This document shows, piece by piece, positions 1 to 64,000 of a DNA stretch of 64,000 bases (the first letter of the stretch is position 1; every line of letters starts with the position of its first letter). This stretch comes from Bdellovibrionota bacterium (GTDB lineage: Bacteria > Bdellovibrionota > UBA1018 > CAUJDS01): positions 64,780 to 128,779 of the forward strand of contig CAUJDS010000060.1 of the NCBI GenBank assembly GCA_963169695.1. The letters are read 5' to 3'. The notes below the pieces were generated by a model. The model worked only from the letters and a program-made list of their open reading frames with translations. It searched no databases and was not told where the DNA came from. The position numbers were made by a program, and so were the translations under genes.

Positions 1-396
1 TGTCAAAACGCGAAGATCTTCCACCATTTTCTCATTGAATGGATCCGCCGTGGCGATTTTGAGTACTTCACTTCCTCCGATGGTCTCCTTGCTTAGTGGA
101 ATCAGCTCTTTGGACTTGGCGTAATTGATTGGTATATTATCTACAATCGCGGGATCAATTTGATCGGGCTTTAGGTCGTCGACATAGTCAAGTCCTACTT
201 GCCTGCAAAGCGCTTGCATAAGCTCAGCGGGAAGGATGATCTTTCGATCTACCAAGATATCTCCAAGAAGACCGCCTTCTTTGCGCTGAATTTCGAGCGC
301 TTCTTGAAGTTGTGCCTTCTGAAGAGAGGTGTGCTCAAGGAGCAACTGTCCTAAAAGGAGACCTTCGCGCGTTGTTGGTAATACCGCTTTGGACAT
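1..396 (-). CDS. gspE: Type II secretion ATPase GspE, N-terminal fragment; gene continues past the window start
   Basis: Minus-strand ATG at 396-394 shares one nucleotide with the gspD stop. Translation MSKAVLPTTREGLLLGQLLLEHTSLQKAQLQEALEIQRKEGGLLGDIL... resembles the GspE/PilB N-terminal (T2SSE_N) domain. It lies immediately downstream of gspC-gspD. Confidence 0.6.
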   Translation of the reverse strand, partial: MSKAVLPTTREGLLLGQLLLEHTSLQKAQLQEALEIQRKEGGLLGDILVDRKIILPAELMQALCRQVGLDYVDDLKPDQIDPAIVDNIPINYAKSKELIPLSKETIGGSEVLKIATADPFNEKMVEDLRVLT

Positions 397-2834
397 TAGA
401 AGTTCTCCTCAACTTCATCTTGCTCCAGGTCTTCGGCATTCTCGTCTTCTGCCTGAGGATTAGAAGGTGTCGCTGAGAGAGTCGAGGTAGACATCGACTT
501 TCCTTTGGCTGTCTCTTCTAAAATCTTCTCAGTATCGGGCAAGCGACGAATGATTTTATTTCGGTAGTGTTGATGAGGATCTTCGCCCGACGCTTCTTCT
601 CGTATAAATTCATCGCGTTCCTGGAATTTTTCATCCAAGATAGCGCGGGCCTTTTCGTATTTGCGAATGATCTTTGGCGTGATGAAGAGAAGAAGATTCG
701 TTTTGGAAATCTGCTGCTCTTTAGACTTAAACAGCCATCCCAAGACTGGAATATCCCCCAGTAGCGGAATCTTCTTGTGGTTGTCCGTAATTTTATCTCG
801 AATCAATCCGCCTAGTACAACCGTGTCACCGTCTGCAACAACAACCGTGGTTTCGATTTGACGATTGAGCGTAGCAAAAGCCTTGGTTGCCACTTCTTGT
901 GGAAGTTCCTTATTGGCGATGTCTTCCATCTTGGCTTTGAGAGTCATTTTCACAAAGTTGGAGATTTTATTGATCTGAGGTTTGATTTTGAGCGAAAGAC
1001 CTACGTCTTCCTTGGTAACCGAAGAAACCACTGAGGTATTGCTCGCCGTAGTGGTCGGAACAGGAATCCGTTCCGTAATTTCAAAGTTGGCCTCTTGATT
1101 ATCCAAAGTCAGGATCTGAGGATTTGCCAAAATATTGGTATTGCTCTGTGTTTGGATGGCTTTGATCAATCCAATGACGTTGCTGACAGGATAGGTTGTG
1201 CCGTTGACCGTAAAGTTGGTTTTCTTGCCCGCGCTCAGTCCCAGTACCATTCCGGAAGAAGCCAAAGGAGTGGTGATGAAGTCCAAGATATCCTTTCCTG
1301 CAGGTGCCAATGAGATCCCATTGGTAGGAGATGCTATATTCGAAGAAAAATTGAAGTCATTTCCTAGCGTCATTTCCATGATGTAGGCTTCGATGTAGAC
1401 TTCGTCTCTCGGAATATCGAGCTTGTTGATCACTCGCTGAACGGTGACAAAGTCCGCTGGTGCCGCCGTTATTACGAGCGAATTGGTGGCTTTGTCAGCA
1501 GCCACTTTGATGTCGCCTTTAAAGAGAGTGGCCGCAGTAGGATTGCCGCGGGTCCGGCCACCGGCTGATGAAGGCGCGGCGGTAGATTTATTCTGACTTT
1601 CAATATTGGTAAGCGTTTTTGCGATTTCTTCTGCATCAGCAAATTGAAGGTAAACGACATGGAGTTTTCCGCCACCTACGGTCGCGGGCTGCTTCTTGTC
1701 CAATGTTGCTATCAGCTCTCGCACTTGCTCGATACCTTTTTGGTTGGCGTTGACGATGAGAGAATTGGTGCGTTCGTCCGCTATGATGTTATTGACGACT
1801 CCACCTTCTTTAGTTTTGCGTGCTGTAAAGTTGCCGCCTCCAAAGGGCTTTGGTCCCGACTTTGGTAGGGCATTGGACTGTCCAGGCAAGAGTGCATCGA
1901 TTAGTTTGGAAATTTCTACCGCAGAAGCGAATTTAACAGGAATGACTTCTATACCCGAATCATAACCTTCAATATCCATGATACTAAGCATGGCCTCGAG
2001 CTTTTTGATATTGGATCCCGTGTCCGTGACGATGACAGTATTGGTTTGAGCGTGAGGTATGACGCGAGAATTGGGTGGCAAGAAGCTTCTAAAGACGCGC
2101 GCAACTTCATCTGCTTCAATATATTTCAGCGGGAAGACGCGAATAATCATGGCGTCGGTATCGGGGCTGTAGTCGCCGGTGAAGGTCTTTAGCTGCTTGT
2201 CACGAGCGTCGCGTTGCCGAGCAATGCGGACATACTTCCCAGATTCAAATACGGTAAAACCATTGATGTCCAGTGCGGTCAGAAAAGCCTTCCAAGCATC
2301 CGATACGGTAATGGGAGAATTAGAAATAATCGTAATTCTTCCCTTCACGCCTTTTTCGAGGATGAAGTTTTTTCCTGTGAGTTTTCCAAGGGTTTTGGCG
2401 ATGTCTACGATTTCAGCGTCGGGATAGTTGAAGTCGGTAACAATCTGATTGCCCCCAATAGCCGACTGAGTGTCGACTGGGATAAAAGGTATACCTTGAG
2501 AGGAGGCCGTGACGCCTGATCCCGCTTCTCCTCCAACAGAAACTTTGCCTGCCTGAAATTTGGGTTCCGGAACATCTGCGCGATTTGTTTCGGTACCACG
2601 AGGATTGATGCTGATGGTTTTACTAGGTGGAGGCGTTTTCTTTGCATTGGCTTCGATGGCATTGAGGAAAGGATTGGTTGCTGGGGCACCGCCCGACTGA
2701 AATCCAGGCTTGCCAGTTGCTCCATGAGCCTCACTCCAGTTGAGAAGGATAAGTCCAGCCGCAGCTGCCACAAATAGAATCACCGCATAGACCCTGAGCC
2801 ATTTCAGCATTGGATCTGTTTTTGGATGGTTCAT
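396..2834 (-). CDS. gspD: Type II secretion system secretin GspD
   Basis: Signal peptide, repeated N-domains and a C-terminal secretin core (VVLGGLIRDKITD...IPLLGDIPVLGWLFKS...LLLFITPKII). Start placed at the internal ATG (MNHPK) preceded by AAGGAAAAAGGGGA, 16 nt after the gspC stop. The track ORF runs to 2867. Long acidic C-terminal tail. Confidence 0.85.
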   Translation of the reverse strand: MNHPKTDPMLKWLRVYAVILFVAAAAGLILLNWSEAHGATGKPGFQSGGAPATNPFLNAIEANAKKTPPPSKTISINPRGTETNRADVPEPKFQAGKVSVGGEAGSGVTASSQGIPFIPVDTQSAIGGNQIVTDFNYPDAEIVDIAKTLGKLTGKNFILEKGVKGRITIISNSPITVSDAWKAFLTALDINGFTVFESGKYVRIARQRDARDKQLKTFTGDYSPDTDAMIIRVFPLKYIEADEVARVFRSFLPPNSRVIPHAQTNTVIVTDTGSNIKKLEAMLSIMDIEGYDSGIEVIPVKFASAVEISKLIDALLPGQSNALPKSGPKPFGGGNFTARKTKEGGVVNNIIADERTNSLIVNANQKGIEQVRELIATLDKKQPATVGGGKLHVVYLQFADAEEIAKTLTNIESQNKSTAAPSSAGGRTRGNPTAATLFKGDIKVAADKATNSLVITAAPADFVTVQRVINKLDIPRDEVYIEAYIMEMTLGNDFNFSSNIASPTNGISLAPAGKDILDFITTPLASSGMVLGLSAGKKTNFTVNGTTYPVSNVIGLIKAIQTQSNTNILANPQILTLDNQEANFEITERIPVPTTTASNTSVVSSVTKEDVGLSLKIKPQINKISNFVKMTLKAKMEDIANKELPQEVATKAFATLNRQIETTVVVADGDTVVLGGLIRDKITDNHKKIPLLGDIPVLGWLFKSKEQQISKTNLLLFITPKIIRKYEKARAILDEKFQERDEFIREEASGEDPHQHYRNKIIRRLPDTEKILEETAKGKSMSTSTLSATPSNPQAEDENAEDLEQDEVEENF

Positions 2835-2850
2835 AGGTTCCCCTTTTTCC

Positions 2851-3882
2851 TTATTGTGTAATGTCATACACCATCGTCGAAGCTTGATTGTCGCGTTTAA
2901 TTTTTAGTTCTACGGAATTCATCGTTTTAAAATCGTTCAGCATTTCAAAAGCTCTCTGCGGATTATTGATGGATTCGCCGTTGACCTCCCGAAGGATGTC
3001 GCCATTTCGCAGTCCGAGCCGATCATAAATACTTCCAGGTACAATCTGGATGAGCTTGTAACCCGACGGCGCTCCGTTTTCGAAGTGAGGGATCGCGCGG
3101 GCCTGGGTCAGTATTTGATTCAGGTTGGAAAGGTTTTTCTCGAGCTCTCCCCGCGGAATATTGAAGCGTTGGGAAGATCCCGTGGATTCGGTTGGAGCAA
3201 AGGCAGGCGCATTGCTTTGAGTGACAATCGACGGCTCAGGAGAATCGGGATCTTGCGGAAGGTCCGCGTACTCGCGGCGGCGGTTTTTGAGATTGATGAA
3301 AATCACCTTACGAGGCTCAACGCGTTCGACTCGAAGCAAGTTCGGCAATTCATCTCCCATTCGGACAGGATAGACTTTGTCGTCCGAGTCATTGTGAAGC
3401 GTGGCAATCGAGTACGCTTCGTCCTGTAGCAGAAGCGTTCCGATGAGTTTGATGGGCAATGTCGTTGGTAAGGCGGGCCCAGAAACTTCTCCGTCGTTGT
3501 CTTCTCCGGGGATCAATCCTTTGCTGTTGAAAAGGTTTCGAGTAAAAATTCCCTCAAAACTGTCCAGGGTTGGTCGGGTGCTGCCGCTAGCCTGCATGCC
3601 CATGGTTCCTCGCATTGTGCGAGGTTCGGGTATCCAGCTATTGATCCAGAGTCCCAAAAGATCCGAAAGAAAATAAGTGCAAAGAATGATGGTCAGAGCA
3701 GTTGTGTAGAACGAAAGGTTGCGTTGCTTGAGGAGCTTTTTTAGCCGATGGACGACTACTACGAACGTACTGCTGGCGCGCTCCGAAAATTTGCCGCCCC
3801 CCCGCTCACGAACTTTCTGCGAGACCTGATAGGCTAGGCTCGTGAGTTTGCTCTTCCATGCGTTAAAATCCGGACGTTTCAT
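2851..3882 (-). CDS. gspC: Type II secretion system protein GspC (TM segment plus C-terminal PDZ domain)
   Basis: N-terminal TM segment (LTIILCTYFLSDLLGLWI). C-terminal PDZ-like region GYKLIQIVPGSIYDRLGLRNGDILREVNGESI. Position directly upstream of the secretin gene. Confidence 0.7.
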   Translation of the reverse strand: MKRPDFNAWKSKLTSLAYQVSQKVRERGGGKFSERASSTFVVVVHRLKKLLKQRNLSFYTTALTIILCTYFLSDLLGLWINSWIPEPRTMRGTMGMQASGSTRPTLDSFEGIFTRNLFNSKGLIPGEDNDGEVSGPALPTTLPIKLIGTLLLQDEAYSIATLHNDSDDKVYPVRMGDELPNLLRVERVEPRKVIFINLKNRRREYADLPQDPDSPEPSIVTQSNAPAFAPTESTGSSQRFNIPRGELEKNLSNLNQILTQARAIPHFENGAPSGYKLIQIVPGSIYDRLGLRNGDILREVNGESINNPQRAFEMLNDFKTMNSVELKIKRDNQASTMVYDITQ

Positions 3883-12510: not shown

Positions 12511-12539
12511 TTGACAACCCCCTGGGTTGGGAATACTAA
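12511..12539 (+). promoter_or_regulatory. Candidate sigma70 promoter driving the thi riboswitch leader
   Basis: TTGACA (12511-12516), 17-nt spacer, TACTAA (12534-12539), immediately 5' of the riboswitch aptamer. Confidence 0.45.
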
Positions 12540-12545
12540 ATTCGA

Positions 12546-12645
12546 AACGGGGAGCTGCCCGTGATTTTTCAAAAGGCGGCTGAGAGGCTCGATAAAGGTC
12601 GAGCGACCCAAATAACTTGATCCAGGTAATGCTGGCGAAAGGAAA
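12546..12645 (+). promoter_or_regulatory. TPP (THI-element) riboswitch
   Basis: GGGGAGCUGCCC ... GGCUGAGA ... ACCC ... AACUUGAUCCAGGUAAUGCUGGCGAAAGGAA matches the conserved TPP aptamer core. The 3' arm abuts the thiM Shine-Dalgarno/ATG at 12651. Confidence 0.8.
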
Positions 12646-12650
12646 TCAAT

Positions 12651-13466
12651 ATGACTACGCCTAGAAGTGCAGCTTCGCTGCTCGAAGTCCTTCGAAGAGA
12701 AAAGCCGCTGATTCATCATCTCACCAATTATGTGACTATGGAGTTTTCGGCTAATGCGCTACTTGCCGTAGGCGCGTCTCCGCTTATGGCTCATGCGCCA
12801 GAAGAAATTTCAGAAATCATATCCATTGCTAGTGCTTTGGTGCTCAATATTGGGACCTTAGACAATGATTGGGTTGCAAGCATGAAGCTGGCAATTATCG
12901 AAGCAAAGCGTAAGGACCTCCCCGTTGTTTTAGATCCGGTAGGTGCCGGAGCTACGAGGTATCGAACTCGGGTGGCCCTGGAGCTTTTGAGCGAAGGTGG
13001 AATCTCGGTTCTCCGTGGCAACGCCTCAGAGGTCCTAGCTTTGGCTGGGCAGGGAGGGGGAGGTAAAGGTGTTGATTCACTCCATGCTTGGTCTGATGCA
13101 GCGGGAGCTGCGCGATTCCTATCGCAAGAGTTTTCTTGCACCGTATGTGTAAGTGGAGAAACTGATTTCATAACGGATGGCAGCCGTGAGGCAAAAGTTT
13201 ACAATGGCCACTCGATGATGACTCAAGTGACTGGTATGGGCTGTGTAGCTACTTCGCTTATTGGAGGCTTTCATGGAATCAGCAACGATGCTTTCCTAGC
13301 CACTGTCAATGCCATGGCCCTTGGTGGGGTTTGTGGTGAGTTGGCGGCTGAGTCAGCGACGGGGCCGGCAAGTTTCCGAATGGCGTGGCTAGATTGGCTA
13401 AGTCGTATTGAGGTTCAACAATTTGAGAATAAAGCTAGTTATGAGCAATTAAGGTTGCTTTCGTGA
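12651..13466 (+). CDS. thiM: Hydroxyethylthiazole kinase
   Basis: LIHHLTNYVTMEFSANALLAVGASPLMAH signature. 271 aa. Confidence 0.85.
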   Translation: MTTPRSAASLLEVLRREKPLIHHLTNYVTMEFSANALLAVGASPLMAHAPEEISEIISIASALVLNIGTLDNDWVASMKLAIIEAKRKDLPVVLDPVGAGATRYRTRVALELLSEGGISVLRGNASEVLALAGQGGGGKGVDSLHAWSDAAGAARFLSQEFSCTVCVSGETDFITDGSREAKVYNGHSMMTQVTGMGCVATSLIGGFHGISNDAFLATVNAMALGGVCGELAAESATGPASFRMAWLDWLSRIEVQQFENKASYEQLRLLS

Positions 13467-53399: not shown

Positions 53400-54094
53400 A
53401 CCTGCCCGCACTTCAGGTTGGCGGGGACGGCTCTTTCGATTTGCTTTGGTGCATCGAGCTTAAGTTCGTTCATGATGATCTGAAACGCTTCTAAATCAAT
53501 TTCGTCCTTGAGCCTCGTATTGTGAACACGCTCTTCCCCGATGGAAGAACTCAAGGCGCCATCATAGTTATGGCCCGGAAAAACCAAGGTAGATGCAGGC
53601 ATTCTGAAGAGTTTGTTTTTGACGCTATGAAAGAGCTTCGCGGAGTCTCCCTGTTGAAAGTCGGTTCTGCCACAGGCTCGGACCAAGAGCGCATCACCAC
53701 TGAAGACCATTCCATAGCCGCTTGGATTGTAGAAGCTCAAGCAGGAGTCGGTGTGGCCAGGGGTCTCTACCACATGCAAGCTGTGATTGCCGAAGCGGAC
53801 TTCTTCGCCTTCTCGCAAGAAGCGATCAGCGCAATCCACCCCGCTATTGCGACTCAATCCTACCTTAGAATCAGAGAAGCGTTCTCGAAGTGCGCTCGCT
53901 CCCGTTATGTGATCGGCATGTACATGGGTATCTAGGATCCAAAGCAACTTCAAATTCAATTCACGGATGATGCGAGCATCTCGATCCACCATTTCTAGTA
54001 CGGGATCTATGATAACGGCTTCTTTGCAGCGTGAGTCAGCAAGGAGGTAAGTGCAGGTACCGGTTTCGATTTCGTAGAGTTGACGAAAGATCAT
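53396..54094 (-). CDS. ETHE1-like persulfide dioxygenase (MBL fold)
   Basis: [19 protein letters not shown]...AVIIDPVLE...LDTHVHADHITG closely resembles the ETHE1/glyoxalase-II-like family (HxHxDH). Confidence 0.8.
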   Translation of the reverse strand: MIFRQLYEIETGTCTYLLADSRCKEAVIIDPVLEMVDRDARIIRELNLKLLWILDTHVHADHITGASALRERFSDSKVGLSRNSGVDCADRFLREGEEVRFGNHSLHVVETPGHTDSCLSFYNPSGYGMVFSGDALLVRACGRTDFQQGDSAKLFHSVKNKLFRMPASTLVFPGHNYDGALSSSIGEERVHNTRLKDEIDLEAFQIIMNELKLDAPKQIERAVPANLKCGQV

Positions 54095-54552
54095 AATTTC
54101 TTCCAAACTTCTTTCAAGGCGCCCATCAGAGTTGGATGCTGAAGGATTTCGATGGCCAAATGATTTTGCGGGGTCTCAATTTTCTTTGGGAGGGTTCCGT
54201 CAGGATTTTCTTCAGCAAACGCATAGAGAAAAGTTCCAGGCTTCTTGGCGTAAACGATTATTTTTCGGGTGTAAATGCCATCACCTGCTTTTTTGTCTCC
54301 CATCACTCCATCGTCGGTAGCAATGCCCATGAGTTGGAGGACCTGGCCAGATTCATCAATTCGGACAACCGACAAACGAGCCTTCGGAAGGTTGGAAGGA
54401 TGAACTCTCGCTGAGACGATAAGGTTGGTGCTTTCTTTGACAAAGACGCTCTTCTGATCCGCATGGATTTCTTCAATCGGAACTGAAGCATGGGACGTGA
54501 GTGTCAAGCTAGTCGCTAGGGCCAAGCATGGAAGCAGGATCCATCCATTCAT
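54091..54552 (-). CDS. Hypothetical secreted protein (153 aa)
   Basis: Signal peptide [22 protein letters not shown]. 5' end overlaps the fumC 3' end by 44 nt. Stop overlaps the ETHE1-like start (ATGA). Confidence 0.45.
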
Positions 54553-55906
54553 CGAACTGTTTCTCCGTTAGGTGCCCAAGAGCAACAGCGGCAGCCTTGA
54601 GCGTGATTCCGTCTTTATACGCTTTCTTCGCAATTTCTGCAGATTTATCGTAGCCAATATGAGGATTGAGAGCGGTCACTAGTGTCAAAGACGCATAAAG
54701 CAACTCTTCGATGCGCTTTTCATCCACAGCCAATCCAACGATGCAATGGTCGGCAAAACTGCGGCAGGAGTCCTTGAGGAGTCGGACAGACTGGAGCAGG
54801 TTGTGAATCATCACAGGCTTAAATACATTGAGCTCAAAGGTGCCTTGACTAGCCGCAAAAGCGATTGCCGAATCATTGCCGTAGACCTGGCAAGCGACCA
54901 TCGTCAAAGCTTCGGACTGAGTGGGATTGACCTTGCCGGGCATAATAGAGCTACCGGGTTCGTTGGCTGGCAAGATCAACTCACCGATTCCGCATCGTGG
55001 GCCAGAGGCTAGCCAGCGCACGTCATTGGCTATTTTCATCAAGCTTCCCGCTAAAGTTCGGAGTGCACCCGATGCAAAGGCAATGGCATCGTGAGAGGCG
55101 AGGGCTTCGAATTTATTGCGAGCAGGCCGAAAGGATACACCCGTCATGGTTGATATTTTTTCGCAAATCTTCTGGTCATAGCCTTTTTTGGAATTCAGCC
55201 CTGTGCCAACGGCGGTACCACCGATGGCAAGGTCGTGAAGGTTCGGAAGTGTGCTTTGGATCCGAGCCATTCCATTTTCGAGTTGCGCAATCCACCCGGA
55301 CATCTCTTGACCAAGCGTGAGAGGGACAGCATCTTGAAGGTGCGTGCGTCCTATTTTGATGATTTCAGAAAACTCATTGGACTTCTTCTGAAGGGCAGCG
55401 ACCAGGTGTTTTACTGCAGGAAGGAGCTCTTGTTCTAATTCCACCGCCGCTGCGATGTGCATGGCAGTAGGAAAAGAATCATTAGAGGACTGCGAAAGAT
55501 TGACGTGATCATTAGGGTGAATTGGCTCTTTGGATCCAAGTTTGCCGCCCGCCATCTCAATAGCACGATTGGCAATCACCTCATTGACGTTCATGTTGAA
55601 TTGAGTCCCGCTACCGGTTTGAAATATCGAAACCGGAAAATGCTCATCCAGTTTTCCATCAATCACTTCTTGTGCCGCCCGAAAAATCAAATCAGCTTGG
55701 CTCTTCTCGAGGTCTTTCATCTCCAGATTGACTTGCGCCGCGGCGTACTTGATTACGCCAAAGGCTCGAATCATCGACCGAGAAAATTTTGCATCACCGA
55801 TATCAAAATATTTGCGGGAGCGCTGCGTCTGAGCACCCCAATAGCAGTCCACAGGTACGTCGATCGGGCCCATCGAGTCTTTTTCGGTACGCATATTGGT
55901 CGTCAT
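54509..55906 (-). CDS. fumC: Fumarate hydratase class II
   Basis: [16 protein letters not shown] signature. 465 aa. Confidence 0.9.
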
Positions 55907-55951: not shown

Positions 55952-56602
55952 TCAAGGGGTTTCGACGGGTAGAATTCCGGCACTTTCAAGCCTGGTTCTC
56001 AGATGCTCTCGAGCTCGAAGGAGTCGCGACCGATGAGCAGGAAGGCTTAGTCCTCTCTCCCTAGCTACTTGACCTAGCGTGTTGCTTGAGTTCAGGTGGA
56101 TGTCTAGTGTTGCACTATCTACTTCAGAGAGCGCTTTCAGTAGTTCTTGAAGGTTGCTCAGAGCTTCCTCTTCGCCAATAGTAGTTAGCGGTGTGGCATC
56201 GGGACCTGAGAACAATGCCAGGTCCAACTCCGTAGAGGACATTGGTCGGGACTTACGAAAGTGGCTAGACTTGAGACGGTCCTTTACCATATTTGCAACA
56301 ATAGAATAAACGTAGGTTGTGAACTTTGATTTGGATGAATCATAGTTATCGAATCCTTTGCGCAACAACCGGACCATGACATCTTGTATGATGTCTTCCT
56401 TTTCTTCTTGGGTCATCCTTGGATTGCCGGCGGTTAGCGTCGACACATATTTTGTAACGGTTTCGTAAATGTTACCGAGGTCAAAGACGCTGCTGCAATC
56501 GGGTTGAGACATTGTAAGTGTAGCAATAGACGCCTGTGAAGGACAAAGGTACAGTGGTACGCATAAAAAAGCAGCGACAAAGCTTCGAATGTTTAGAATC
56601 AT
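55952..56602 (-). CDS. ECF-type sigma-70 family protein with N-terminal hydrophobic extension
   Basis: Region 2 (DIIQDVMVRLLRKGFDNYD...YVYSIVANMVKDRL) and region 4 (SNTLGQVARERGLSLPAHRSRLLRAREHL). ATG lies 15 nt after the upstream stop. The first 25 aa look like a signal peptide. Confidence 0.7.
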   Translation of the reverse strand: MILNIRSFVAAFLCVPLYLCPSQASIATLTMSQPDCSSVFDLGNIYETVTKYVSTLTAGNPRMTQEEKEDIIQDVMVRLLRKGFDNYDSSKSKFTTYVYSIVANMVKDRLKSSHFRKSRPMSSTELDLALFSGPDATPLTTIGEEEALSNLQELLKALSEVDSATLDIHLNSSNTLGQVARERGLSLPAHRSRLLRAREHLRTRLESAGILPVETP

Positions 56603-56617
56603 TTTCTTGACTCGACT

Positions 56618-57367
56618 TTATCTAAGATTGAGAATTGCACCTAACTTCAATCGCCCCCGTCTTAGCACCATTTTGAAATTATTTATTTTCAAACCTAATA
56701 GCTGAGCAGATTCGATATAGGATTTGTCTTCAAAGTCTACCAGGCGAATAGCGTCCTGCTGAACCTGGGGGAGACTCTGGTAGGCACCCCATATCAAACT
56801 GAGCATGGAGAAGTAGACATCCTTTAAGATGAGCTCCTCTTCTTGCGAAATCAAAATGTTCAAGACCGGGCTAGTGTCTCTGCTCGGACTTCGCTCCAGA
56901 GGGTCGTGGTTGCCGTCAGGATCGTTCGGATTCCTTAGATCGCCTGAGGATTGGAAAAATTTGAGGATTTTTATCCGCTTATCTAGGATTTTCTTAGCAG
57001 CATTTTCAAAAATCCTTCCAACATAAGCCTCAAGGGTCGATCCAAAGTCTTCTCGATACTTGTGGCCCGAATATTTAAGTATATTCTCTAGGGTCAGGCT
57101 GACAATGTCCTCAACATCCTGGGGATTCAAGGTGCGTGAATACCTGCGCGCGATTTTTCTTCTGAGGATTTCAATTTCCGGAAGCGCATTCTGGATAAAG
57201 GCCTCCGCGGATGCTGTATCCTGAAAACTTGTGCGGCATGCTTCTGGATCTAATTTATCCGCTCCACCACTGGAGCCATTTCCATATGCCAAGGGAGAAA
57301 ATTCCAATGCCAAGAAAAGACTCAGGCTGAAACAATTTGTAAGAGCTTTTTGACAAGAAGTACTCAC
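56618..57367 (-). CDS. ECF-type sigma-70 family protein (paralogue) with N-terminal hydrophobic extension
   Basis: Region 2 (VEDIVSLTLENILKY...YVGRIFENAAKKIL) and region 4 (DAIRLVDFEDKSYIESAQLLGLKINNFKMVLRRGRLKL). GTG start 10 nt after the giant gene stop. No in-frame ATG before region 2. Confidence 0.7.
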   Translation of the reverse strand: MSTSCQKALTNCFSLSLFLALEFSPLAYGNGSSGGADKLDPEACRTSFQDTASAEAFIQNALPEIEILRRKIARRYSRTLNPQDVEDIVSLTLENILKYSGHKYREDFGSTLEAYVGRIFENAAKKILDKRIKILKFFQSSGDLRNPNDPDGNHDPLERSPSRDTSPVLNILISQEEELILKDVYFSMLSLIWGAYQSLPQVQQDAIRLVDFEDKSYIESAQLLGLKINNFKMVLRRGRLKLGAILNLR

Positions 57368-57377
57368 TATGGTTGCT

Positions 57378-60300
57378 TTACTTTCTCTTTTCTCGTTGTT
57401 CTTCTAACCAACGAGTAGGATTGATGCGAGTTCCGCGGTCGATCTTCCAGTCCACGGACTCTAGCACTTTGCCGTCTTTGTCGAGAAGTTCAAAATGATC
57501 CAGGAACCATCGTCGTGTCAAAATATAAGAAAAATCCAAGTTCTTTGTGCCATTTGCAGGAGATTCGATTGGCAGAATCCTGCGGACCACTTTGATTTTT
57601 GCAACATCCTGATAAATTGGATTTCCTGGATCTTCCTGAATACCTACAATCACCGAATGCAGAAAGGCACCTAGGCTAGTATGAGGGTCAAAATCCAAGG
57701 CTGTCGGCTCCGATGGCTGGGGCAGGGGAGGCGTCCATAGGCCAAAGTAGCTTCCCGCTTTTTTGGCCAGTGCAGTCCAAGTGCCATCAAGCGCGTTTCT
57801 TTCTTCCGCTAGATTATGGAGCAATTCATCCTCCGATAGAGGCTTGCCTTCTTTTTTTCTTTTCTCTGCTTCGACCTTCTTGGGATCTAGCCAAAGCGAG
57901 GGAATGGCTTTCAGGGGGTCCGGCAAATCGGACTCTACCGTCGGCGTCATCACAAAACCGTCTTCGATCACTAAGTCAGTGCCGTCCTTCTTTTTGGCTG
58001 GGAGCCGAATGGCAAATATTTTGGGTTCGATCTGTTGAAATCCATCAGGACCTAGAATGAAGAGCACATTCTGGTGCCTTCCAATCACAACGACGCTCTT
58101 AAGCAAAGGTTCGTTGGGATTCATGGGATTGCGCAGGTACTGTTTGTAAACCCAACCCGTGTTTTCGAGCAGCCAATCAAAGCCCCAGCCGCTCTCGGTC
58201 ATCTCTCCAAGGACCTTCTGCCATAGGGGTTCTAGGTTGAAAGGATCGTGATCATCTTCCTGATCTTCAGGAGGTAAGTCGGCCGTCTCGGTTCTTTGCG
58301 TAAAGACGATGCCTGAAGGAATCGTCTCGCCGCCAAGATTCACTCCGCGGTCGAGGATGCCTTTCTCACGATCGCGCTCCTTGCTTAGTGCTACGAGCTT
58401 CTTTTCAAGTGGAGTGAGGGATTCTTCCAACATGGGCTTGAGGTACGCACGAGGGTCGTCGGAGCGCATTATTTTGCTCTCAAATGCTCGGTGGCTTGCT
58501 TCGTGCGGAGCAAGGCTAGGTTGGGTGTCGGAAACAAACCAGCTCTTGATCCAATGAGTCCATGTCTTGTCCTCGGGTTGGGAGGCTCCCTTTTGCTGCG
58601 CGAGTCGCACAAGGCCTCTGCGTATATCGTCAGTTTCAAGTCGAAGATTTTTGTACTGTTGGTCAAAGATCTTACCTTCACCTTGAGTGAGCTCTTCCTG
58701 GCTCATGCCCAGAGCTTCGACTAGGTCTTCGAGGGTCATTTTATTTTCTGGATCGACGAGTTGTATTTCGTCAAATTTCAGACCATCCAAGAAGTCACCT
58801 GCATAACGTGCTTCGTCCGGAAAGCCACTAGCCATCATGGTGATTTCGCGTACGCCGTTTTTCTCAGCTATAGCTAATTGCTCCATGATCTTGTCGACCT
58901 GGGGTTGTCCGATGAATTGCGCTCGCGGGAATCCGGCGGCCGCATCTTGCACGCCTTTGTTGATCAGGCCGTCTTTTTCGGTCAGTTCATTAAATAGCGC
59001 AGCTGAAGTGAATCGATCCACGCCCGCAACAAGAAGCTGTCCTGCGGCTCCGGGTATTCCGCCGAGTTTGCCAAGGCTAAGTTGGAGAGGCGCAGTCGCC
59101 ATGGCAAAAGGAAGTTCGAAAACATTGCCATAGAGTATAGAAGTCTTGGCATAGTTGCTGGCACTCATCGCACCATTGACCGAAAAGTCTCTCTGACCAC
59201 TGACCATGATTTGATGTGCGGTCGCGAGCGATCCTGACCAAAGCAAGGTGAAGGCCGATTGCGTAGCCATCGCCCCTTTCATTGAGCGAGATTGAAGGGC
59301 AAAGGGCATAAGAAATACAAGCATTCCCGAATTGCTCATTCGGTGAAGGAGGATTTCATTGAAGTCTTTATTGTCTAGGTTGAAATCGACCTTACCGTCA
59401 CGGGTGAGCAGATCTCCGGCCATTCCTGCGGTCCACTCAGCAAGCAATCCCCAACGGGCATACTGCCAGTATTGTGGTCCACGAGAGCCCAGAGCTGCAC
59501 GATAGGTTGCTGATCCCACTCCATTGACTAATTTGGAGGCGCCTTTGACAAAAGTCTTCACCGTAGCGATGGGCATTCGTAGGACTTTGACTGTGCGAAG
59601 CCCACGTAGCGGATCCATACCTGATCGGAGTTGGTAGCGGACAAGCCACTGTGCCAAAGATTCGCCTTGATTGAAGGTGGGGATTTTTTCTGCTGCGTTT
59701 CGGCCTGCCTTGATAAGGGTCATAGAAGCGGGACCATTATTCTCACGTTGAATGGAGCGTAAAAGTTCGAGACGGTTCCCGTCGGCGTGGATGCTGGCCA
59801 TCCGCATCACCTCAGGATGTCGACCGAGGACGGCATTCTGCCTTGCGAGTTGGAGGAGTTGTGTCTCGGAGTGCAGGCTACGAATAACGCCTTCTGCGAG
59901 CTTTCTGCTTCTGCCGATTTTCAGTAGGTCCATGTAGCTCGCATCTCGCAGGTTGCGGTAGTTGCGAATCAATCGTATCAGCGCCCGTCCGCGAACTGAA
60001 AACGCCTGAAAAAACTGGCGGAAGGGATTTTGGGTAAGCTTGATATCTGCTGCATACTGGAAGAAAATACGAAATCGGTTTCCAACCTCCAGCCAATAGT
60101 CGACTTCACTCTGTGTCGCCCCTGGGATTGAAAAACGCGCCAACTCAGCATTTTCCAGAAAAGCAGTGTGACCTAGCCTGCTGGTTTCGATGTGATTGAA
60201 GGCTCGTTGGTTAATGGCATTAGGTGTCGCCAATTTCCGAGCCCCCTCGTCGATGCTGCGACTCACATAGCTTGCGTAGGTATCGGCCTGTGTGCGGCCT

Positions 60301-63300
60301 AAGCTTTGCTCATAGCGCCGAGTCAGCTCTTGATGCAGATAGGGATGTTCGTGGCGCAGACGGTTCAAGAATTGGTATTCGGCTTCCTTTTTTGCAGCAA
60401 GCGAGGTTGTCCGCGGTGCAACCTGCTTTAGGTAGCCCTGATTTAAGTCCGTCAAGGCCTGATAGCGTTTTTGAAGCTGAGCTTCCACGCCAGGATTTCG
60501 AGCGAAGAGCTTTTCTAAGCTGCGAGCACTCGCAAGGTCTACACGGTACTTCTTGAGTGCGGTAATCAAGCCCGGATCCAAGGAGCCGCTGAGGTCTAGG
60601 TCTGCCAAGGTCTGGCCAGAAGCATTTCCGCTCTTAGAGAAAAGCTCCATAAACTCTTCAAAATCCTTCGTGGTCATTCCCTTCCAGGTATTGCCAGTGG
60701 CACGAGTGGTTTCGGCGACGTCGAGCATTTCTTCCACGCCATTTTGTCGCATAAAGTGGAGAAAGTCCTCAAACTCGGGATGGGCTTGAACCGCTGCTCG
60801 AATTTGTTGTACCCGGGATTGGGAGAGTTGAAGGGTGCTGTATGAAACAGCGGTTTCTACATTGACGGTTCGAACCGGCCATCGAAATGGCCAAAGCGGA
60901 CGATCCCACCGTAGTGGAAACTGCAAAGCATACCTTTTTCGTTTTACGGTTTCGGTGACGTTGAAGCCATCCGTCCCATAGAAGTCATTTAGTGTGAATC
61001 GGGGTTCGACGGTGGTCGGTGTTGTGGTTATTTTGACCGATGAGACAGGAGCGTTGGGATCTCCGGGGAGTCCTGCCGGCGTTTCGATTGGCATAATCTC
61101 AGCAACGAGGTTACCTGGCTCTAGTCCCTTAAAGTATTTGGATCCCGTTACTTCAAAGACCACATAGTCCGAAAAGCTTGGCTTAGGAGCCATTGCTTGA
61201 ATGCCATTGCGAAGGGAGTTGCGAAAGGGAATGAGGCGCTGAAGCCATCCATCGGTTTGAATCCAGTTGCCAATTCCGCCTCGAAATCCAAGTCGGTTCT
61301 GAATAAATCCATCACGCCAAAACCATGATGTATCTGCGCGGTAACGTCTCCAAAGTTCTCGGTAGGTCTTTGGAAAATATTTCTTAAGATCGGTCACTAA
61401 TTTGGAACGATATCCCGCAAGTTCTTGGGCGGGGATGATTTGCTTTCCGCCAATCCGCGCTTTGGCTCCTCGGATGCTGACTACATGATCTTCGATGAGT
61501 TGTTGGAGTTGATCAAAATTCTTCTGTGCTATCTCTGGTCGAAATGCTGGACTTCCCACTCTTCGAAGTTTAGCCAGGTCGTCGATTCCTTCTTCATACA
61601 TTCCGTACTCTTTTAAGTATCTGAGCTGTCGGTTGTGGCTAGCGGGATCTAAGGCGAGACGAAGCCGATTGTCTTGTACCTCGCGGACGGCTAGGCGCTT
61701 GTCCATGTTTTTTAGAAGGTGATTAAATGGAATGTTTTCTTTGATGGTTCCAACTACGGGCACCGCGCTCTTACCTGCAGCAACACGAAGGTAAAAGAGA
61801 GAAGCCGCTTGGACGCTGATCAAGCCCAGAGAGAGGTACCAGTTATTTAGAGCTTCCTGGCTCATGAGTAGGTTCTGATCAACAGTAGCAGGGTCTACAT
61901 GGGCCAAGGGCTCTCCATTGCGGTCGATGGTGTACTGAAGGGCTTCAAAGAGATGAGGAAGTTCTCCTATGGCGTTGAAGTAAAGTTGGCTAGATGCACC
62001 TGTGGTGAGAGCAAGGTCAGTAACGAGCATAGCCATGGCGAGCCATTCTGACGGAAAAAGAAGCAGAGTGAGCCCAGTGCCAACTCCAGACCCTATTAAG
62101 GACCAATGCAAGAGGCGATTGGATCGCTCAGTCTCAGCCATCATGGAATTATAGAAGGGGAGGAGATTGTCAAAACTTGCTTTGACTTGCTCGGGCTTGA
62201 AACCAAAGCTTGAGGCGAGCATCTTTTGAAGGTTCTCTGAGGATTGAAAGACTGGAATAAGAATAGAGAAATAGCGCAAATAATCTTCGGCATTGCCAGA
62301 TTCATGAATTTCTTCGTCGGAAATGGTTTGTTTCTCAAGGCTCGAATCGAAGAGAGCGTTCTCGGGGAGCATGTGAAGGACACGAGAAGTCATACCAAAG
62401 AATCCCTTGGGCGTCTGTCTGCGGGTCATAGCCAGAAGGGATGTGTTGAGATGAAGCATCCGCTTTTCCCATGCCTGGTAGTGAAGCTCGTCCGCCACGG
62501 AAAGGAGATTTCGGAGGCCTGAACTGAGGTCGTCGTCTTCTACTGCATGAAAAATGCTTGATTTGAGGTCTTCGAGAGGAACTTCTGAAATTTCGTTGCG
62601 TAGAACGATTTCGAGATTTTTAGGAAGCGTGCCCTGATTCCAACGAAGGATCTTTCCAAATTCTGGATTGCGGCTATTGATTTGTAGGTACTGATAAAAG
62701 GCGAGGGCAGCGTAAGCCTCATAGAGAAAAGGAAGCTTGAGTTCTTTGCGGACGGGATTGCGGTATTCACCCAAGATCTGGGTCAGGTGAGCAAAAAGCC
62801 TGGTGTTGATTTTATTTGGCAGGATGTCCGAAGGAATCGGTGCCGCAAGAATGCGGTTACTGTCCTTTAGAAATTCTTGCTGCTGCTTGGATCGAATTTC
62901 AGCGACGACCGCGGCTGGAATATTTTTCCCCTGAGCCAGAACTCGGTCATACTCCCAGACCATGAGAGAATCGATCATGGAATAGATCAGTGCGGTTTGC
63001 CCAAGGGGAGAGGTACCGTGAAAAAGGTTTTTCTGGTCCCGCGTGGTAGTTTTGTCGTCTTGAATCGTCAGAAAGCGCTGAAAATCTGGAAAGAGCTCCT
63101 TTGGATAAGCTCGCTGGTAAGCCTCGAGCAAATGTTCGGTCTTGCCTTGGTTGTAGGCAATGGCCTTATCGCCAAAGAAGTTTTCGCCATACTCAACATG
63201 CTGCCTTCGCGTGATCAGAAGCAATGCTGTGGTGAGCTTGGCCGCGGCCATCAGCGGCAGCAATCCGTTTTTGCCGATTTCGAGCGATTGAGTCTTATCT

Positions 63301-63542
63301 TTGACCTGTGCAAGAACTTCCGTACCCGCCACCGCGGAAGAAGGAGCGGCAAGCGTGGACTCTAAGGTCAATCGTCCACCATCGTTGGAAGCTTCTGGGG
63401 CGCTGTCTTCTTCCGTAGTTTCGTCAGAAGCCTGTGCGTTGGAGGTGGGATAAAAAGGGGCAATAGAACTGAGTGTGAAAACCCAAAGTAGAAGAAGCGA
63501 TAAGGTCCACTGTCGATTGGAAGAGAGATTATGCTGATTCAC
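57378..63542 (-). CDS. Giant hypothetical secreted/membrane-associated protein (2054 aa)
   Basis: Uninterrupted 6165-nt ORF. N-terminal Sec signal (WTLSLLLLWVFTLSSIAPFYPTSNAQA). Internal hydrophobic segments. ATG overlaps the upstream ORF by 4 nt. Confidence 0.6.
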   Translation of the reverse strand: MNQHNLSSNRQWTLSLLLLWVFTLSSIAPFYPTSNAQASDETTEEDSAPEASNDGGRLTLESTLAAPSSAVAGTEVLAQVKDKTQSLEIGKNGLLPLMAAAKLTTALLLITRRQHVEYGENFFGDKAIAYNQGKTEHLLEAYQRAYPKELFPDFQRFLTIQDDKTTTRDQKNLFHGTSPLGQTALIYSMIDSLMVWEYDRVLAQGKNIPAAVVAEIRSKQQQEFLKDSNRILAAPIPSDILPNKINTRLFAHLTQILGEYRNPVRKELKLPFLYEAYAALAFYQYLQINSRNPEFGKILRWNQGTLPKNLEIVLRNEISEVPLEDLKSSIFHAVEDDDLSSGLRNLLSVADELHYQAWEKRMLHLNTSLLAMTRRQTPKGFFGMTSRVLHMLPENALFDSSLEKQTISDEEIHESGNAEDYLRYFSILIPVFQSSENLQKMLASSFGFKPEQVKASFDNLLPFYNSMMAETERSNRLLHWSLIGSGVGTGLTLLLFPSEWLAMAMLVTDLALTTGASSQLYFNAIGELPHLFEALQYTIDRNGEPLAHVDPATVDQNLLMSQEALNNWYLSLGLISVQAASLFYLRVAAGKSAVPVVGTIKENIPFNHLLKNMDKRLAVREVQDNRLRLALDPASHNRQLRYLKEYGMYEEGIDDLAKLRRVGSPAFRPEIAQKNFDQLQQLIEDHVVSIRGAKARIGGKQIIPAQELAGYRSKLVTDLKKYFPKTYRELWRRYRADTSWFWRDGFIQNRLGFRGGIGNWIQTDGWLQRLIPFRNSLRNGIQAMAPKPSFSDYVVFEVTGSKYFKGLEPGNLVAEIMPIETPAGLPGDPNAPVSSVKITTTPTTVEPRFTLNDFYGTDGFNVTETVKRKRYALQFPLRWDRPLWPFRWPVRTVNVETAVSYSTLQLSQSRVQQIRAAVQAHPEFEDFLHFMRQNGVEEMLDVAETTRATGNTWKGMTTKDFEEFMELFSKSGNASGQTLADLDLSGSLDPGLITALKKYRVDLASARSLEKLFARNPGVEAQLQKRYQALTDLNQGYLKQVAPRTTSLAAKKEAEYQFLNRLRHEHPYLHQELTRRYEQSLGRTQADTYASYVSRSIDEGARKLATPNAINQRAFNHIETSRLGHTAFLENAELARFSIPGATQSEVDYWLEVGNRFRIFFQYAADIKLTQNPFRQFFQAFSVRGRALIRLIRNYRNLRDASYMDLLKIGRSRKLAEGVIRSLHSETQLLQLARQNAVLGRHPEVMRMASIHADGNRLELLRSIQRENNGPASMTLIKAGRNAAEKIPTFNQGESLAQWLVRYQLRSGMDPLRGLRTVKVLRMPIATVKTFVKGASKLVNGVGSATYRAALGSRGPQYWQYARWGLLAEWTAGMAGDLLTRDGKVDFNLDNKDFNEILLHRMSNSGMLVFLMPFALQSRSMKGAMATQSAFTLLWSGSLATAHQIMVSGQRDFSVNGAMSASNYAKTSILYGNVFELPFAMATAPLQLSLGKLGGIPGAAGQLLVAGVDRFTSAALFNELTEKDGLINKGVQDAAAGFPRAQFIGQPQVDKIMEQLAIAEKNGVREITMMASGFPDEARYAGDFLDGLKFDEIQLVDPENKMTLEDLVEALGMSQEELTQGEGKIFDQQYKNLRLETDDIRRGLVRLAQQKGASQPEDKTWTHWIKSWFVSDTQPSLAPHEASHRAFESKIMRSDDPRAYLKPMLEESLTPLEKKLVALSKERDREKGILDRGVNLGGETIPSGIVFTQRTETADLPPEDQEDDHDPFNLEPLWQKVLGEMTESGWGFDWLLENTGWVYKQYLRNPMNPNEPLLKSVVVIGRHQNVLFILGPDGFQQIEPKIFAIRLPAKKKDGTDLVIEDGFVMTPTVESDLPDPLKAIPSLWLDPKKVEAEKRKKEGKPLSEDELLHNLAEERNALDGTWTALAKKAGSYFGLWTPPLPQPSEPTALDFDPHTSLGAFLHSVIVGIQEDPGNPIYQDVAKIKVVRRILPIESPANGTKNLDFSYILTRRWFLDHFELLDKDGKVLESVDWKIDRGTRINPTRWLEEQREKRK

Positions 63543-64000
63543 TTCTTTCGTCCTTCGGTAGTTGCATCTTGATTAAGCAGGTCCCTTTTTAGTTGAAGTT
63601 CAAAGGGAGTCAACTGGGAGAGTGAAATTTCTTCGGGCACCGAGAGCTTGATCGTCAAGGCTCTGTCCTTGGTCGACGCTAGGATCTCAGCGTAGGCAGC
63701 CTGGTCCAATTCTGGGAGTGCGCTGGAGAGTTGTTGAGTCCATTCCTTGAGCATTGCCGAGAAGGTCAAAACGTCGTCAAGGGAGGGCTGCGGATTGCTA
63801 CCAAGTTCTTGGAGATTCTTCTTCAATGAAGCAAGGCCGGATCTCAGAGACTCTTGAGTGACGCCCGAGAAGTTATCTTCGGCTACGCGAGGCAAGAGGG
63901 CAATTTCTAACTGTTGAAGTTCTGCTTCGAAAGCTTCCCGCGGAAAAATCCGAATACCTAGGCTCACGAGGCCCGCTTCAGTGTCCTGAAGGTGTTGCTC
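63539..64000 (-). CDS. Hypothetical protein, partial (open reading frame continues past the window end)
   Basis: The frame is open from the window edge. The track start is a GTG at 63967. Stop overlaps the giant gene start. Acidic, helical. Confidence 0.35.
   Translation of the reverse strand, partial: EQHLQDTEAGLVSLGIRIFPREAFEAELQQLEIALLPRVAEDNFSGVTQESLRSGLASLKKNLQELGSNPQPSLDDVLTFSAMLKEWTQQLSSALPELDQAAYAEILASTKDRALTIKLSVPEEISLSQLTPFELQLKRDLLNQDATTEGRKK

Follow-up and report, generated by a model that had tools for sequence, protein, structure and literature searches.

What would govern a sigma factor that has no anti-sigma partner and begins with what looks like a secretion signal? The question is raised by two genes of a Bdellovibrionota bacterium, which stand in tandem on the minus strand of a 64,000-nucleotide (nt) stretch of contig CAUJDS010000060.1 (assembly GCA_963169695.1, positions 64,780 to 128,779; this whole stretch is hereafter called the window). 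Both encode proteins that resemble sigma factors of the extracytoplasmic function (ECF) type: sig1 (positions 55952-56602; 216 amino acids, aa; ATG start), the more canonical of the two, lies on the side of fumC, and sig2 (56618-57367; 249 aa; GTG start), the more degenerate, lies on the side of a giant gene. An initial annotation of the window had pointed to the hydrophobic N termini of the two proteins and had offered membrane-tethered sigma factors, non-canonical start codons, or a sigma fold with another role as explanations. We find the observation confirmed, and stronger than before because it is conserved in three genomes. Its interpretation is partly supported, and our analysis narrows it to what appears to be a genuine, selected, signal-type presequence on ECF-like proteins in an operon for secreted proteins. 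By a modest measure, we lean toward the view that these proteins are secretory precursors whose localization or export, and not an anti-sigma factor, would set their activity.

The domain content of the two proteins places them among the ECF sigma factors with different degrees of clarity. The core of sig1 (sigma2, linker, and sigma4; residues 48-205, positions 55988..56461 of the minus strand) matched the sigma70-ECF model TIGR02937 at 56.4 bits (cut-off 42.9) and Pfam Sigma70_r2 (PF04542) at 37.1 bits (cut-off 24). The corresponding core of sig2 (residues 67-246, positions 56630..57169, minus strand) passed the cut-off of Sigma70_r4_2 (PF08281; 28.2 bits for a cut-off of 25.7) and stayed below those of Sigma70_r2 (16.4 bits, 24 needed) and TIGR02937 (33.9 bits over residues 70-242, 42.9 needed). 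Alignment with relatives and canonical ECFs nevertheless located both region 2 and region 4 in each protein, with sig2 aligning through region 2 to its relatives and to RpoE. The description of these regions as “unmistakable” thus holds for the presence of both domains and was somewhat overstated for each of the proteins taken singly. The closest sequence matches of sig1 in the PDB were Rhodobacter sphaeroides RpoE (2q1z) and Bacillus subtilis SigW (5wuq), at E of about 2e-3. Structure prediction by AlphaFold2 without an alignment gave poor models (mean predicted local distance difference test score, pLDDT, of 45 for sig2 and 50 for sig1), and Foldseek ranked Mycobacterium tuberculosis ECF sigma chains (sigmaH and sigmaL) first, at nonsignificant E values of 0.04-0.3.

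Sequence searches revealed how isolated the two proteins are. Word-indexed searches of 5.8 billion proteins with sig1 and sig2 as queries returned only the queries themselves, and an exhaustive HMMER comparison of sig1 with 1.84 billion representative proteins gave 418 matches at E <= 1e-3, all of them distant ECFs bar one, with the best full-length match other than sig1 itself at E of about 1e-9. The top HMMER match, a 5904-aa protein (P0005), was rejected as spurious, being a sum of weak repeat matches. In the second-best match other than sig1 itself (P0006, 467 aa), a single polypeptide joins two complete ECF-like modules head to tail, as a covalent version of a tandem sigma pair, and it has no signal peptide. 

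The neighbors of the sigma-like genes proved to be the better guides to the family. A search with the giant protein that is encoded next to sig2 yielded exactly one homologue in the protein databases (P0004, 2156 aa, 31% identity over 99% of the query), which is encoded on contigs L005 and L006 of assembly GCA_054034315.1. On L006, the gene order is a 765-aa protein, the giant, a single 230-aa sigma-like protein that we call sigR, fumC, a small signal-peptide protein, and a protein of the metallo-beta-lactamase fold. A third instance came to light when fumC served as the anchor in a search of one genome for each species. The fumC gene nearest in sequence (76% identity) is carried by contig L007, labeled “uncultured Oligoflexia bacterium,” behind a 2227-aa giant (L007:1159-7842) and two sigma-like proteins, L7A (278 aa) and L7B (288 aa). 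The module of a ~750-aa protein, a ~2100-aa giant, one or two sigma-like genes, and then fumC is hence present in three genomes. Judged by the similarity of fumC and by this shared and otherwise unique module, the window organism would belong to Oligoflexia/Bdellovibrionota. Alignment scans of genome, Joint Genome Institute (JGI) metagenome, and viral contigs with the giant protein found no further homologues, so that in all collections searched, homologues of the giant are known from two other assemblies only. Four other contigs carrying the window locus are 100% identical to it in this region, and no paralogues of the module proteins were found elsewhere in the window.

The five sigma-like proteins share only 18-29% identity, and yet their kinship can be traced. 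The TIGR02937 cut-off is passed by four of the five, with sigR (92.1 bits), L7B (58.9 bits), and L7A (55.4 bits) joining sig1. No cut-off of any NCBIfam equivalog or subfamily model was reached by any of the five, the best attempt being that of sigR (74 bits against 204); a place in a well-known ECF group, which would have spoken for a standard architecture, was accordingly not found with these models. By the domain tests, sig1 and sig2 are members of the ECF superfamily and, to judge from the NCBIfam models, stand outside every described subgroup that we tested. The copies next to fumC (sig1, sigR, and L7B) retain the sigma2 motifs ED(I/V/L)xQ(D/E) and TYxxxIxxN and the sigma4 motif (K/R)SRxxRA, and the copies next to the giant (sig2 and L7A) are degenerate, with an atypical sigma4 recognition helix in L7A. 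Since sig1 matches sigR (27% identity, E = 5e-7) and, weakly, the fumC-proximal L7B (36% identity over 42 residues, E = 2.6e-4), it is likely the counterpart of both; the giant-proximal copy is absent from L006. Whether the two window genes are paralogues, as first stated, depends on where one looks: L7A and L7B clearly are (29% identity, E = 1.6e-17), whereas sig1 and sig2 show no detectable similarity by BLASTP (E = 0.32), which gives the statement weak support for the window pair itself. Because the window pair is so dissimilar while the L007 pair is clearly paralogous, a tandem duplication is plausible but would be old.

What unites the five proteins, despite this divergence, is the layout of their N termini. 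Each begins with a sequence arranged as a Sec signal, that is, a charged n-region, a hydrophobic h-region, and a c-region (n-h-c), continues with a linker rich in Ser, Thr, and Gly, and ends in sigma2 and sigma4. In all five, our heuristic n-h-c scan found Lys or Arg in the n-region followed by an uncharged hydrophobic core of 12-17 residues, often terminated by Pro. With the predicted cleavage site marked by a slash, the segment of sig1 (residues 1-24; 56531..56602, minus strand) reads MILNIR, SFVAAFLCVPLYLC, and PSQA/S, and that of sig2 (residues 1-29; 57281..57367, minus strand) reads MSTSCQK, ALTNCFSLSLFLAL, and EFSPLAYG/N, with the positive charge at K7, an uncharged core of 14 residues, and an A-x-G site. 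These are the hydrophobic N termini exactly as the initial annotation had quoted them, now seen to recur in every member of the family. The presequence of sigR on L006 is MFCLK-SFGWGLTITMALVHLSLA/G; on L007, L7B has …KLLR-LLTASIALGVLFSW-TDASLA/H, and L7A, the weakest case, has …FALR-VLGAFVVSCLFI-NQG. Small residues occupy positions -3 and -1 in four of the five (SQA/S, AYG/N, SLA/G, and SLA/H), and the first five residues of the predicted mature protein are free of Lys and Arg, likewise in four of the five.

The linker that follows is ~20-45 residues long, rich in Ser, Thr, Gly, Asn, and acidic residues, and holds exactly one cysteine before sigma2 in each protein: C36 in sig1, C44 in sig2, C30 in sigR, C54 in L7A, and C62 in L7B. 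In sig1, the linker spans residues 25-47 (56462..56530, minus strand), with the codon for the conserved cysteine at 56495-56497 and an in-frame ATG at codon 31; in sig2, a Gly/Ser/acidic linker spans residues 30-66 (57170..57280, minus strand), with the cysteine codon at 57236-57238. Apart from this residue, the mature parts are nearly free of cysteine. We calibrated the n-h-c scan on random open 60-codon stretches from the window, ~5% of which it flagged. Among the best 150 ECF-like database matches, it flagged four besides the query, and only one of these (P0009) has its hydrophobic segment at the extreme N terminus. As a small control, 1.4 Mb of fetched DNA was searched for further matches to the family profile; only two other open reading frames (ORFs) came up (E = 3e-8 and 1e-5), and neither has such an N terminus. 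The signal-peptide architecture, present in five of five members, exceeds what chance provides (~5% of random stretches and about 1 in 150 ECF-like matches).

A hydrophobic N terminus read from DNA could, of course, be an artifact of a start codon called too far upstream. If these were ordinary cytoplasmic ECFs, their true or main start would lie after the hydrophobic segment, and the upstream codons would be 5′ untranslated region (UTR) or belong to a minor long isoform; ECFs with two starts are known, as in the sigmaR/SigH group ECF12s1 (PMC7826278). Indeed, a possible start codon (ATG, GTG, or TTG) lies in frame between core and cysteine in each of the five genes (sig1 M31, sig2 L26, sigR M29, L7A V48, and L7B L43), one gene-calling program began sig2 at an internal TTG, for a product of 231 aa, and the extended starts of both window genes lack a Shine-Dalgarno motif. 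However, start codons at such positions in five of five genes are expected by chance at an estimated ~8%, which is not significant; those of sig2 and L7B lie in the signal segment itself or directly at its end; and none of the internal starts in the five genes has a Shine-Dalgarno motif. As first reported, sig2 has no in-frame ATG ahead of region 2, where TTG at codons 19, 21, and 26 is the sole alternative, and the ATG at codon 31 of sig1 is without a ribosome-binding motif. Such motifs are found instead at the extended starts of L7B (TAAGGA, 6 nt, ATG) and sigR (AAAGG, 4 nt, ATG), and within the window only about half of the starts of the longest ORFs carry one. The tight spacing noted initially was borne out by measurement, with 10 nt from the stop of the giant to the GTG of sig2 and 15 nt from the stop of sig2 to the ATG of sig1; starts this close behind the preceding stop codon fit translational coupling.

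The reading frames themselves speak most strongly against a late start. They are open for 35, 55, 55, 81, and 86 codons upstream of the start of the ECF model in the five genes, with a joint chance of ~4e-7 as computed from local stop-triplet frequencies, and neither such open frames nor an n-h-c layout kept at 18-29% identity would be expected of noncoding leaders. Gene calls on the NCBI contig and on most Logan contigs take the extended starts, and both give sig2 249 aa. Scored for codon usage, frame 0 was the best of the three frames across the extension in both window genes. We thus consider a late start very improbable, and the suggestion of non-canonical start codons falls with it; a minor, short, cytoplasmic isoform is conceivable. 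Conversely, we are highly confident that the extension is part of the protein. Because the layout is conserved in five proteins, the frames are open, and such N termini are nearly absent among the 150 best ECF-like matches, the extension is most probably translated and under selection and not a miscalled start. Taken together, sig1 and sig2 are best explained as genuine genes whose products, divergent members of the ECF-type sigma family, are made from the upstream starts.

What, then, would such a presequence do? In sig2, L7A, and L7B, the charged residues that flank the uncharged core are only ~13-15 residues apart, and cores of 12-17 residues are shorter than a stable transmembrane helix requires and of the kind typical for cleavable signal peptides. 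Positive charge precedes the core, and in four of the five, the stretch of 15 residues behind it is neutral or acidic; the positive-inside rule then predicts an N-in/C-out orientation with the sigma domain translocated. By our heuristic scoring, the n-region and h-region of a Sec signal are recognizable in all five and acceptable residues at -3 and -1 in four. By these sequence rules, the presequence fits a cleavable Sec signal, processed by signal peptidase I, better than a membrane anchor. Two other classes of signal were considered and rejected: Tat, as none of the five N termini has an RR motif, and the lipoprotein signal of signal peptidase II, as the lipobox [LVI][ASTVI][GAS]C fits only L7A (VVSC). 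The conserved cysteine lies 7-18 residues past the predicted signal peptidase I site in non-lipobox contexts (QPDC, PEAC, TTMC, TGKC, and SGSC).

Of the membrane-tethered sigma factor that had been proposed, one form thus loses ground and another stays in play. We dismissed a transmembrane anchor on account of the short cores and the N-terminal positive charge. The surviving form is a membrane-associated pro-sigma factor, in which the hydrophobic pro-sequence would hold an inactive sigma factor at the cytoplasmic face of the membrane until a regulated protease cuts the linker, in the manner of Bacillus pro-sigmaK and pro-sigmaE or of the BldN pro-protein; acting in cis, and possibly with the giant protein as a sensor, the presequence would stand in for the anti-sigma factor. 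Sporulation sigma factors carry such N-terminal pro-sequences, and a flexible linker with a conserved residue would make a natural processing site. The canonical sigma2 and sigma4 motifs of sig1, sigR, and L7B, the missing anti-sigma gene, and the few hydrophobic internal segments of the giant, which could span a membrane, are all in keeping with this idea, and within the ECFs a pro-sequence is known from BldN (ECF121; PMC7826278). However, the BldN-family model TIGR02952 scores just 35.4 bits on sig1 and 55.3 bits on sigR (cut-off 206), no protease domain is detectable in the module, and those hydrophobic segments lack consistent conservation across the three giant proteins. The charge pattern would moreover put the sigma domain outside the cytoplasm, the cores are too short for a stable anchor, and a peripheral pro-sequence would need neither an n-h-c layout nor cleavage sites of the A-x-A type. 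On balance, we regard a pro-sigma factor of this kind as a credible but rather unlikely explanation.

The genomic context of the sigma-like genes points out of the cytoplasm as well. Directly upstream of them on the minus strand lies the giant (57378..63542, 2054 aa), an ORFan without sequence match in Pfam, NCBIfam, or the PDB and with an N-terminal signal peptide (…TSNAQA/SDE). The first gene of the module, here called up, encodes a 724-aa protein that has a signal peptide and likewise no match in these three databases; its 3′ part lies in the window (63539..64000, minus strand) and the full gene at L001:890-3064, and its stop codon overlaps the start of the giant gene (GTGA). The up protein is 24% identical to the 765-aa protein of L006 (E = 1.9e-33). 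Signal peptides are present on both proteins in the window genome and in L006 and on the giant of L007, where the up gene is seen in part only. The giant of the window has no cysteine in its 2054 residues (P about 3e-9 at the 0.95% Cys of the window), and its homologues have two and one, the single one sitting in the signal peptide. Other exported proteins of the window are also poor in cysteine, such as a secretin with none in 823 residues. Signal peptides together with the near absence of cysteine suggest that up and the giant are extracytoplasmic, and the sharing of a module with two such proteins, one of them a cysteine-free giant, lends the sigma-like genes an extracytoplasmic context too.

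An anti-sigma gene, by contrast, is not recognizable nearby. Neither the giant and up proteins, in which a search for a cryptic domain had been suggested, nor the neighboring 153-aa and 467-aa proteins gave a Pfam or NCBIfam match to an anti-sigma factor, although a cryptic domain too divergent to be recognized is conceivable in the giant. Just as first described, the next gene downstream is fumC, and this order is conserved in the three genomes; in the window, fumC (54509-55906) has Lyase_1 and FumaraseC_C domains and an AGGAG Shine-Dalgarno motif and lies 45 nt past sig1. In L006, an intrinsic terminator (20-bp stem and T-run; L006:10703-10747) separates sigR from fumC, which indicates that the sigma gene closes the operon and that fumC is merely adjacent. 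Apart from this terminator, consensus scans for sigma-70-type promoters and for terminators stayed at chance level, and inspection by eye found no ECF-type autoregulatory promoter conserved between the genomes. The giant and the first sigma-like gene are 10 nt apart in the window, 68 nt apart in L006, and separated by 336 noncoding nt in L007 (L007:7843-8178); because of this last gap, the sigma genes of L007 may have a promoter of their own.

Several features around the module deserve mention in their own right. In the three genomes, fumC is followed by a gene for a small signal-peptide protein of 153, 157, and 200 aa (window 54091-54552, minus strand; L006:12241-12714; L007:11458-12060) without a family match. 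In the window, this gene and the 3′ end of fumC share 44 nt. A comparison of the window copy with that of L007 showed a common 17-residue motif. Just upstream of the module in L006 is a BrnT/BrnA toxin-antitoxin pair (L006:460-988). Some 55 kb from the module, the window encodes the cysteine-free secretin mentioned above (396-2867, minus strand), which is of the GspD type, with N0, Secretin_N, and Secretin domains, and is by its domains an outer-membrane channel of type II secretion. Last, a thiamine pyrophosphate (TPP) riboswitch (Rfam RF00059, 57 bits, above the gathering score) occupies 12538-12660 on the plus strand and ends just inside the ORF at 12651-13466.

These elements can be assembled into a mechanism for the export reading that we favor. 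The precursor would consist of a Sec signal peptide, apparently cleavable by signal peptidase I, a flexible linker with one cysteine, and the sigma2 and sigma4 domains, and it would be made from the 3′ end of a lineage-specific operon that also encodes signal-peptide proteins of ~750 and ~2100 aa. The presequence would direct the sigma-like proteins to and through the Sec translocon, with either of two consequences: The proteins may be removed from the cytoplasm of the producer and act outside with the giant protein, as its cargo or accessory, or export may serve as an off-switch, such that any precursor left behind in the cytoplasm would work as a sigma factor whenever export is blocked or saturated. 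For the lone linker cysteine, a disulfide in an oxidizing compartment is the obvious guess. Export, cleavage, binding of RNA polymerase, the role of the cysteine, and the choice between the two branches are all inferred from the sequence. With regard to the destination, a Sec signal of 20-23 residues was found to be sufficient to take a reporter to the supernatant in Bdellovibrio bacteriovorus (PMC12622784), which makes extracellular release plausible in this phylum by analogy.

A number of points weigh against this reading. Phrase searches of the literature turned up no relevant precedent for an exported, periplasmic, membrane-anchored, or membrane-tethered sigma factor. The evidence is computational and comes from three genomes only, all derived from metagenomes, and the n-h-c calls stem from a lenient scan of our own, not a trained predictor, that flags ~5% of random sequence. 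The predicted cleavage site of L7A is poor (NQG/R, with Arg at +1), and no Shine-Dalgarno motif supports the extended starts of sig1 and sig2. Codon-usage scores of the extensions (0.006 in sig1 and -0.009 in sig2) exceed the out-of-frame mean (-0.359 ± 0.183) but fall short of the in-frame mean (0.157 ± 0.086), with the first 40 codons of other signal-peptide genes at 0.03-0.2. The giant has no conserved cysteine with which the conserved sigma cysteine could pair. Finally, the canonical ECF motifs of the fumC-proximal copies argue for an ongoing role in transcription, which requires the cytoplasm. Since these motifs favor a protein that still meets RNA polymerase somewhere, an off-switch by export, or delivery to another cell, fits better than a purely periplasmic role.

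Two variants of export bear on this last point from opposite sides. The first is that the proteins are exported and have lost their role in transcription altogether, the sigma fold now serving as a helical adaptor, a chaperone subunit, or a nucleic acid-binding partner of the giant. The degeneration of the upstream copies, with L7A atypical and sig2 below the Pfam sigma2 and TIGR02937 cut-offs, would be understandable in this light, as would the isolation of the family, with its few distant matches among 1.84 billion representatives, and its occurrence in an operon with secreted ORFans in three of three genomes. Set against this are the ECF signature residues retained by sig1, L7B, and sigR, the last with 92 bits to TIGR02937, the single copy that suffices in L006, and the lack of positive evidence for any alternative activity. 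The original suggestion of a sigma fold with another role is therefore, as a subcase of export, a doubtful one in our estimation.

The second variant takes the retained motifs at face value and moves their target. Here, the sigma-like proteins and the cysteine-free giant would be secreted as interbacterial or host-directed effectors that act on the RNA polymerase of another cell, be it prey or host of this Oligoflexia/Bdellovibrionota bacterium, whose polymerase core would be sequestered or redirected, and the disulfide of the linker cysteine would be reduced upon reaching the target cytoplasm. Phage sigma factors such as T4 gp55 and SPO1 gp28 redirect the host RNA polymerase and thus place the sigma factor of one genome on the polymerase of another, and the proposed effectors would be their cellular counterpart. 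Phage sigma factors are, however, made in the cytoplasm of the host and have no secretion signal, and the parallel is relevant to this speculative variant alone, to which we give little credence.

Among the signal-transducing transcription factors of bacteria, no family is larger than that of the ECF sigma factors. They are known to be controlled by anti-sigma factors, C-terminal extensions, kinases, and, in a few cases, N-terminal pro-sequences. With a conserved Sec-type presequence on an ECF core, a new principle would join this list, namely, regulation by targeting or export. If it is true that the proteins leave the cell, then they would be the first secreted sigma factor. The association would, in addition, open a first way to the function of a secreted ~2100-aa ORFan from a little-known and partly predatory lineage.

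How does this architecture compare with ECFs that have been described? In its main text, the ECF classification 2.0 reports N-terminal extensions only for BldN (ECF121, a pro-protein), SigC (ECF36s4, auto-inhibition), and sigmaR/SigH (ECF12s1, an unstable long isoform), and transmembrane helices only in anti-sigma factors or in C-terminal extensions (PMC7826278). The ECF (group 4) factors of the sigma-70 family, such as RpoE of Escherichia coli and R. sphaeroides and SigW of B. subtilis, have the same two-domain sigma2-sigma4 build with a short linker, but the window genes differ from them in closing an operon, downstream of genes for giant secreted proteins, instead of preceding an anti-sigma gene, and the 35-86-residue extension with signal layout of the five proteins is not among the extensions in that main text (PMC7826278). 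BldN, SigC, and sigmaR/SigH are closer in that they, too, are ECFs with a regulatory N-terminal extension, which acts by proteolytic maturation, auto-inhibition, or as an unstable isoform, respectively (PMC7826278); none of these extensions is characterized there as a signal peptide or a hydrophobic targeting segment, and BldN keeps its anti-sigma factor. Within the phylum-level lineage of the window proteins, B. bacteriovorus has two ECF-like proteins, Bd0743 (206 aa) and Bd0881 (162 aa), which likewise have no co-transcribed anti-sigma homologue and have lineage-specific neighbors; compared by description only, they differ in their normal sizes, and no N-terminal extension is described for them (PMC3464611).

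By analogy, the nearest functional parallels appear to be pro-sigmaE and pro-sigmaK of Bacillus and the export-coupled checkpoint of FlgM and sigma28. The pro-sequences of pro-sigmaE and pro-sigmaK bind the membrane and keep the protein inactive until they are removed by proteolysis, without a classical anti-sigma factor. These are, however, group 3 sigma factors and not ECFs, their pro-sequences are not n-h-c Sec signals, and they need the proteases SpoIIGA and SpoIVFB, domains of which kind were not detected in the module. In the FlgM/sigma28 pair, as in SecM, VemP, and MifM, the activity of a regulator is tied to its own export and so reads the state of the secretion machine. In those systems, an anti-sigma factor or an arrest peptide is exported, whereas the module described here would send out the sigma factor itself, by way of Sec.

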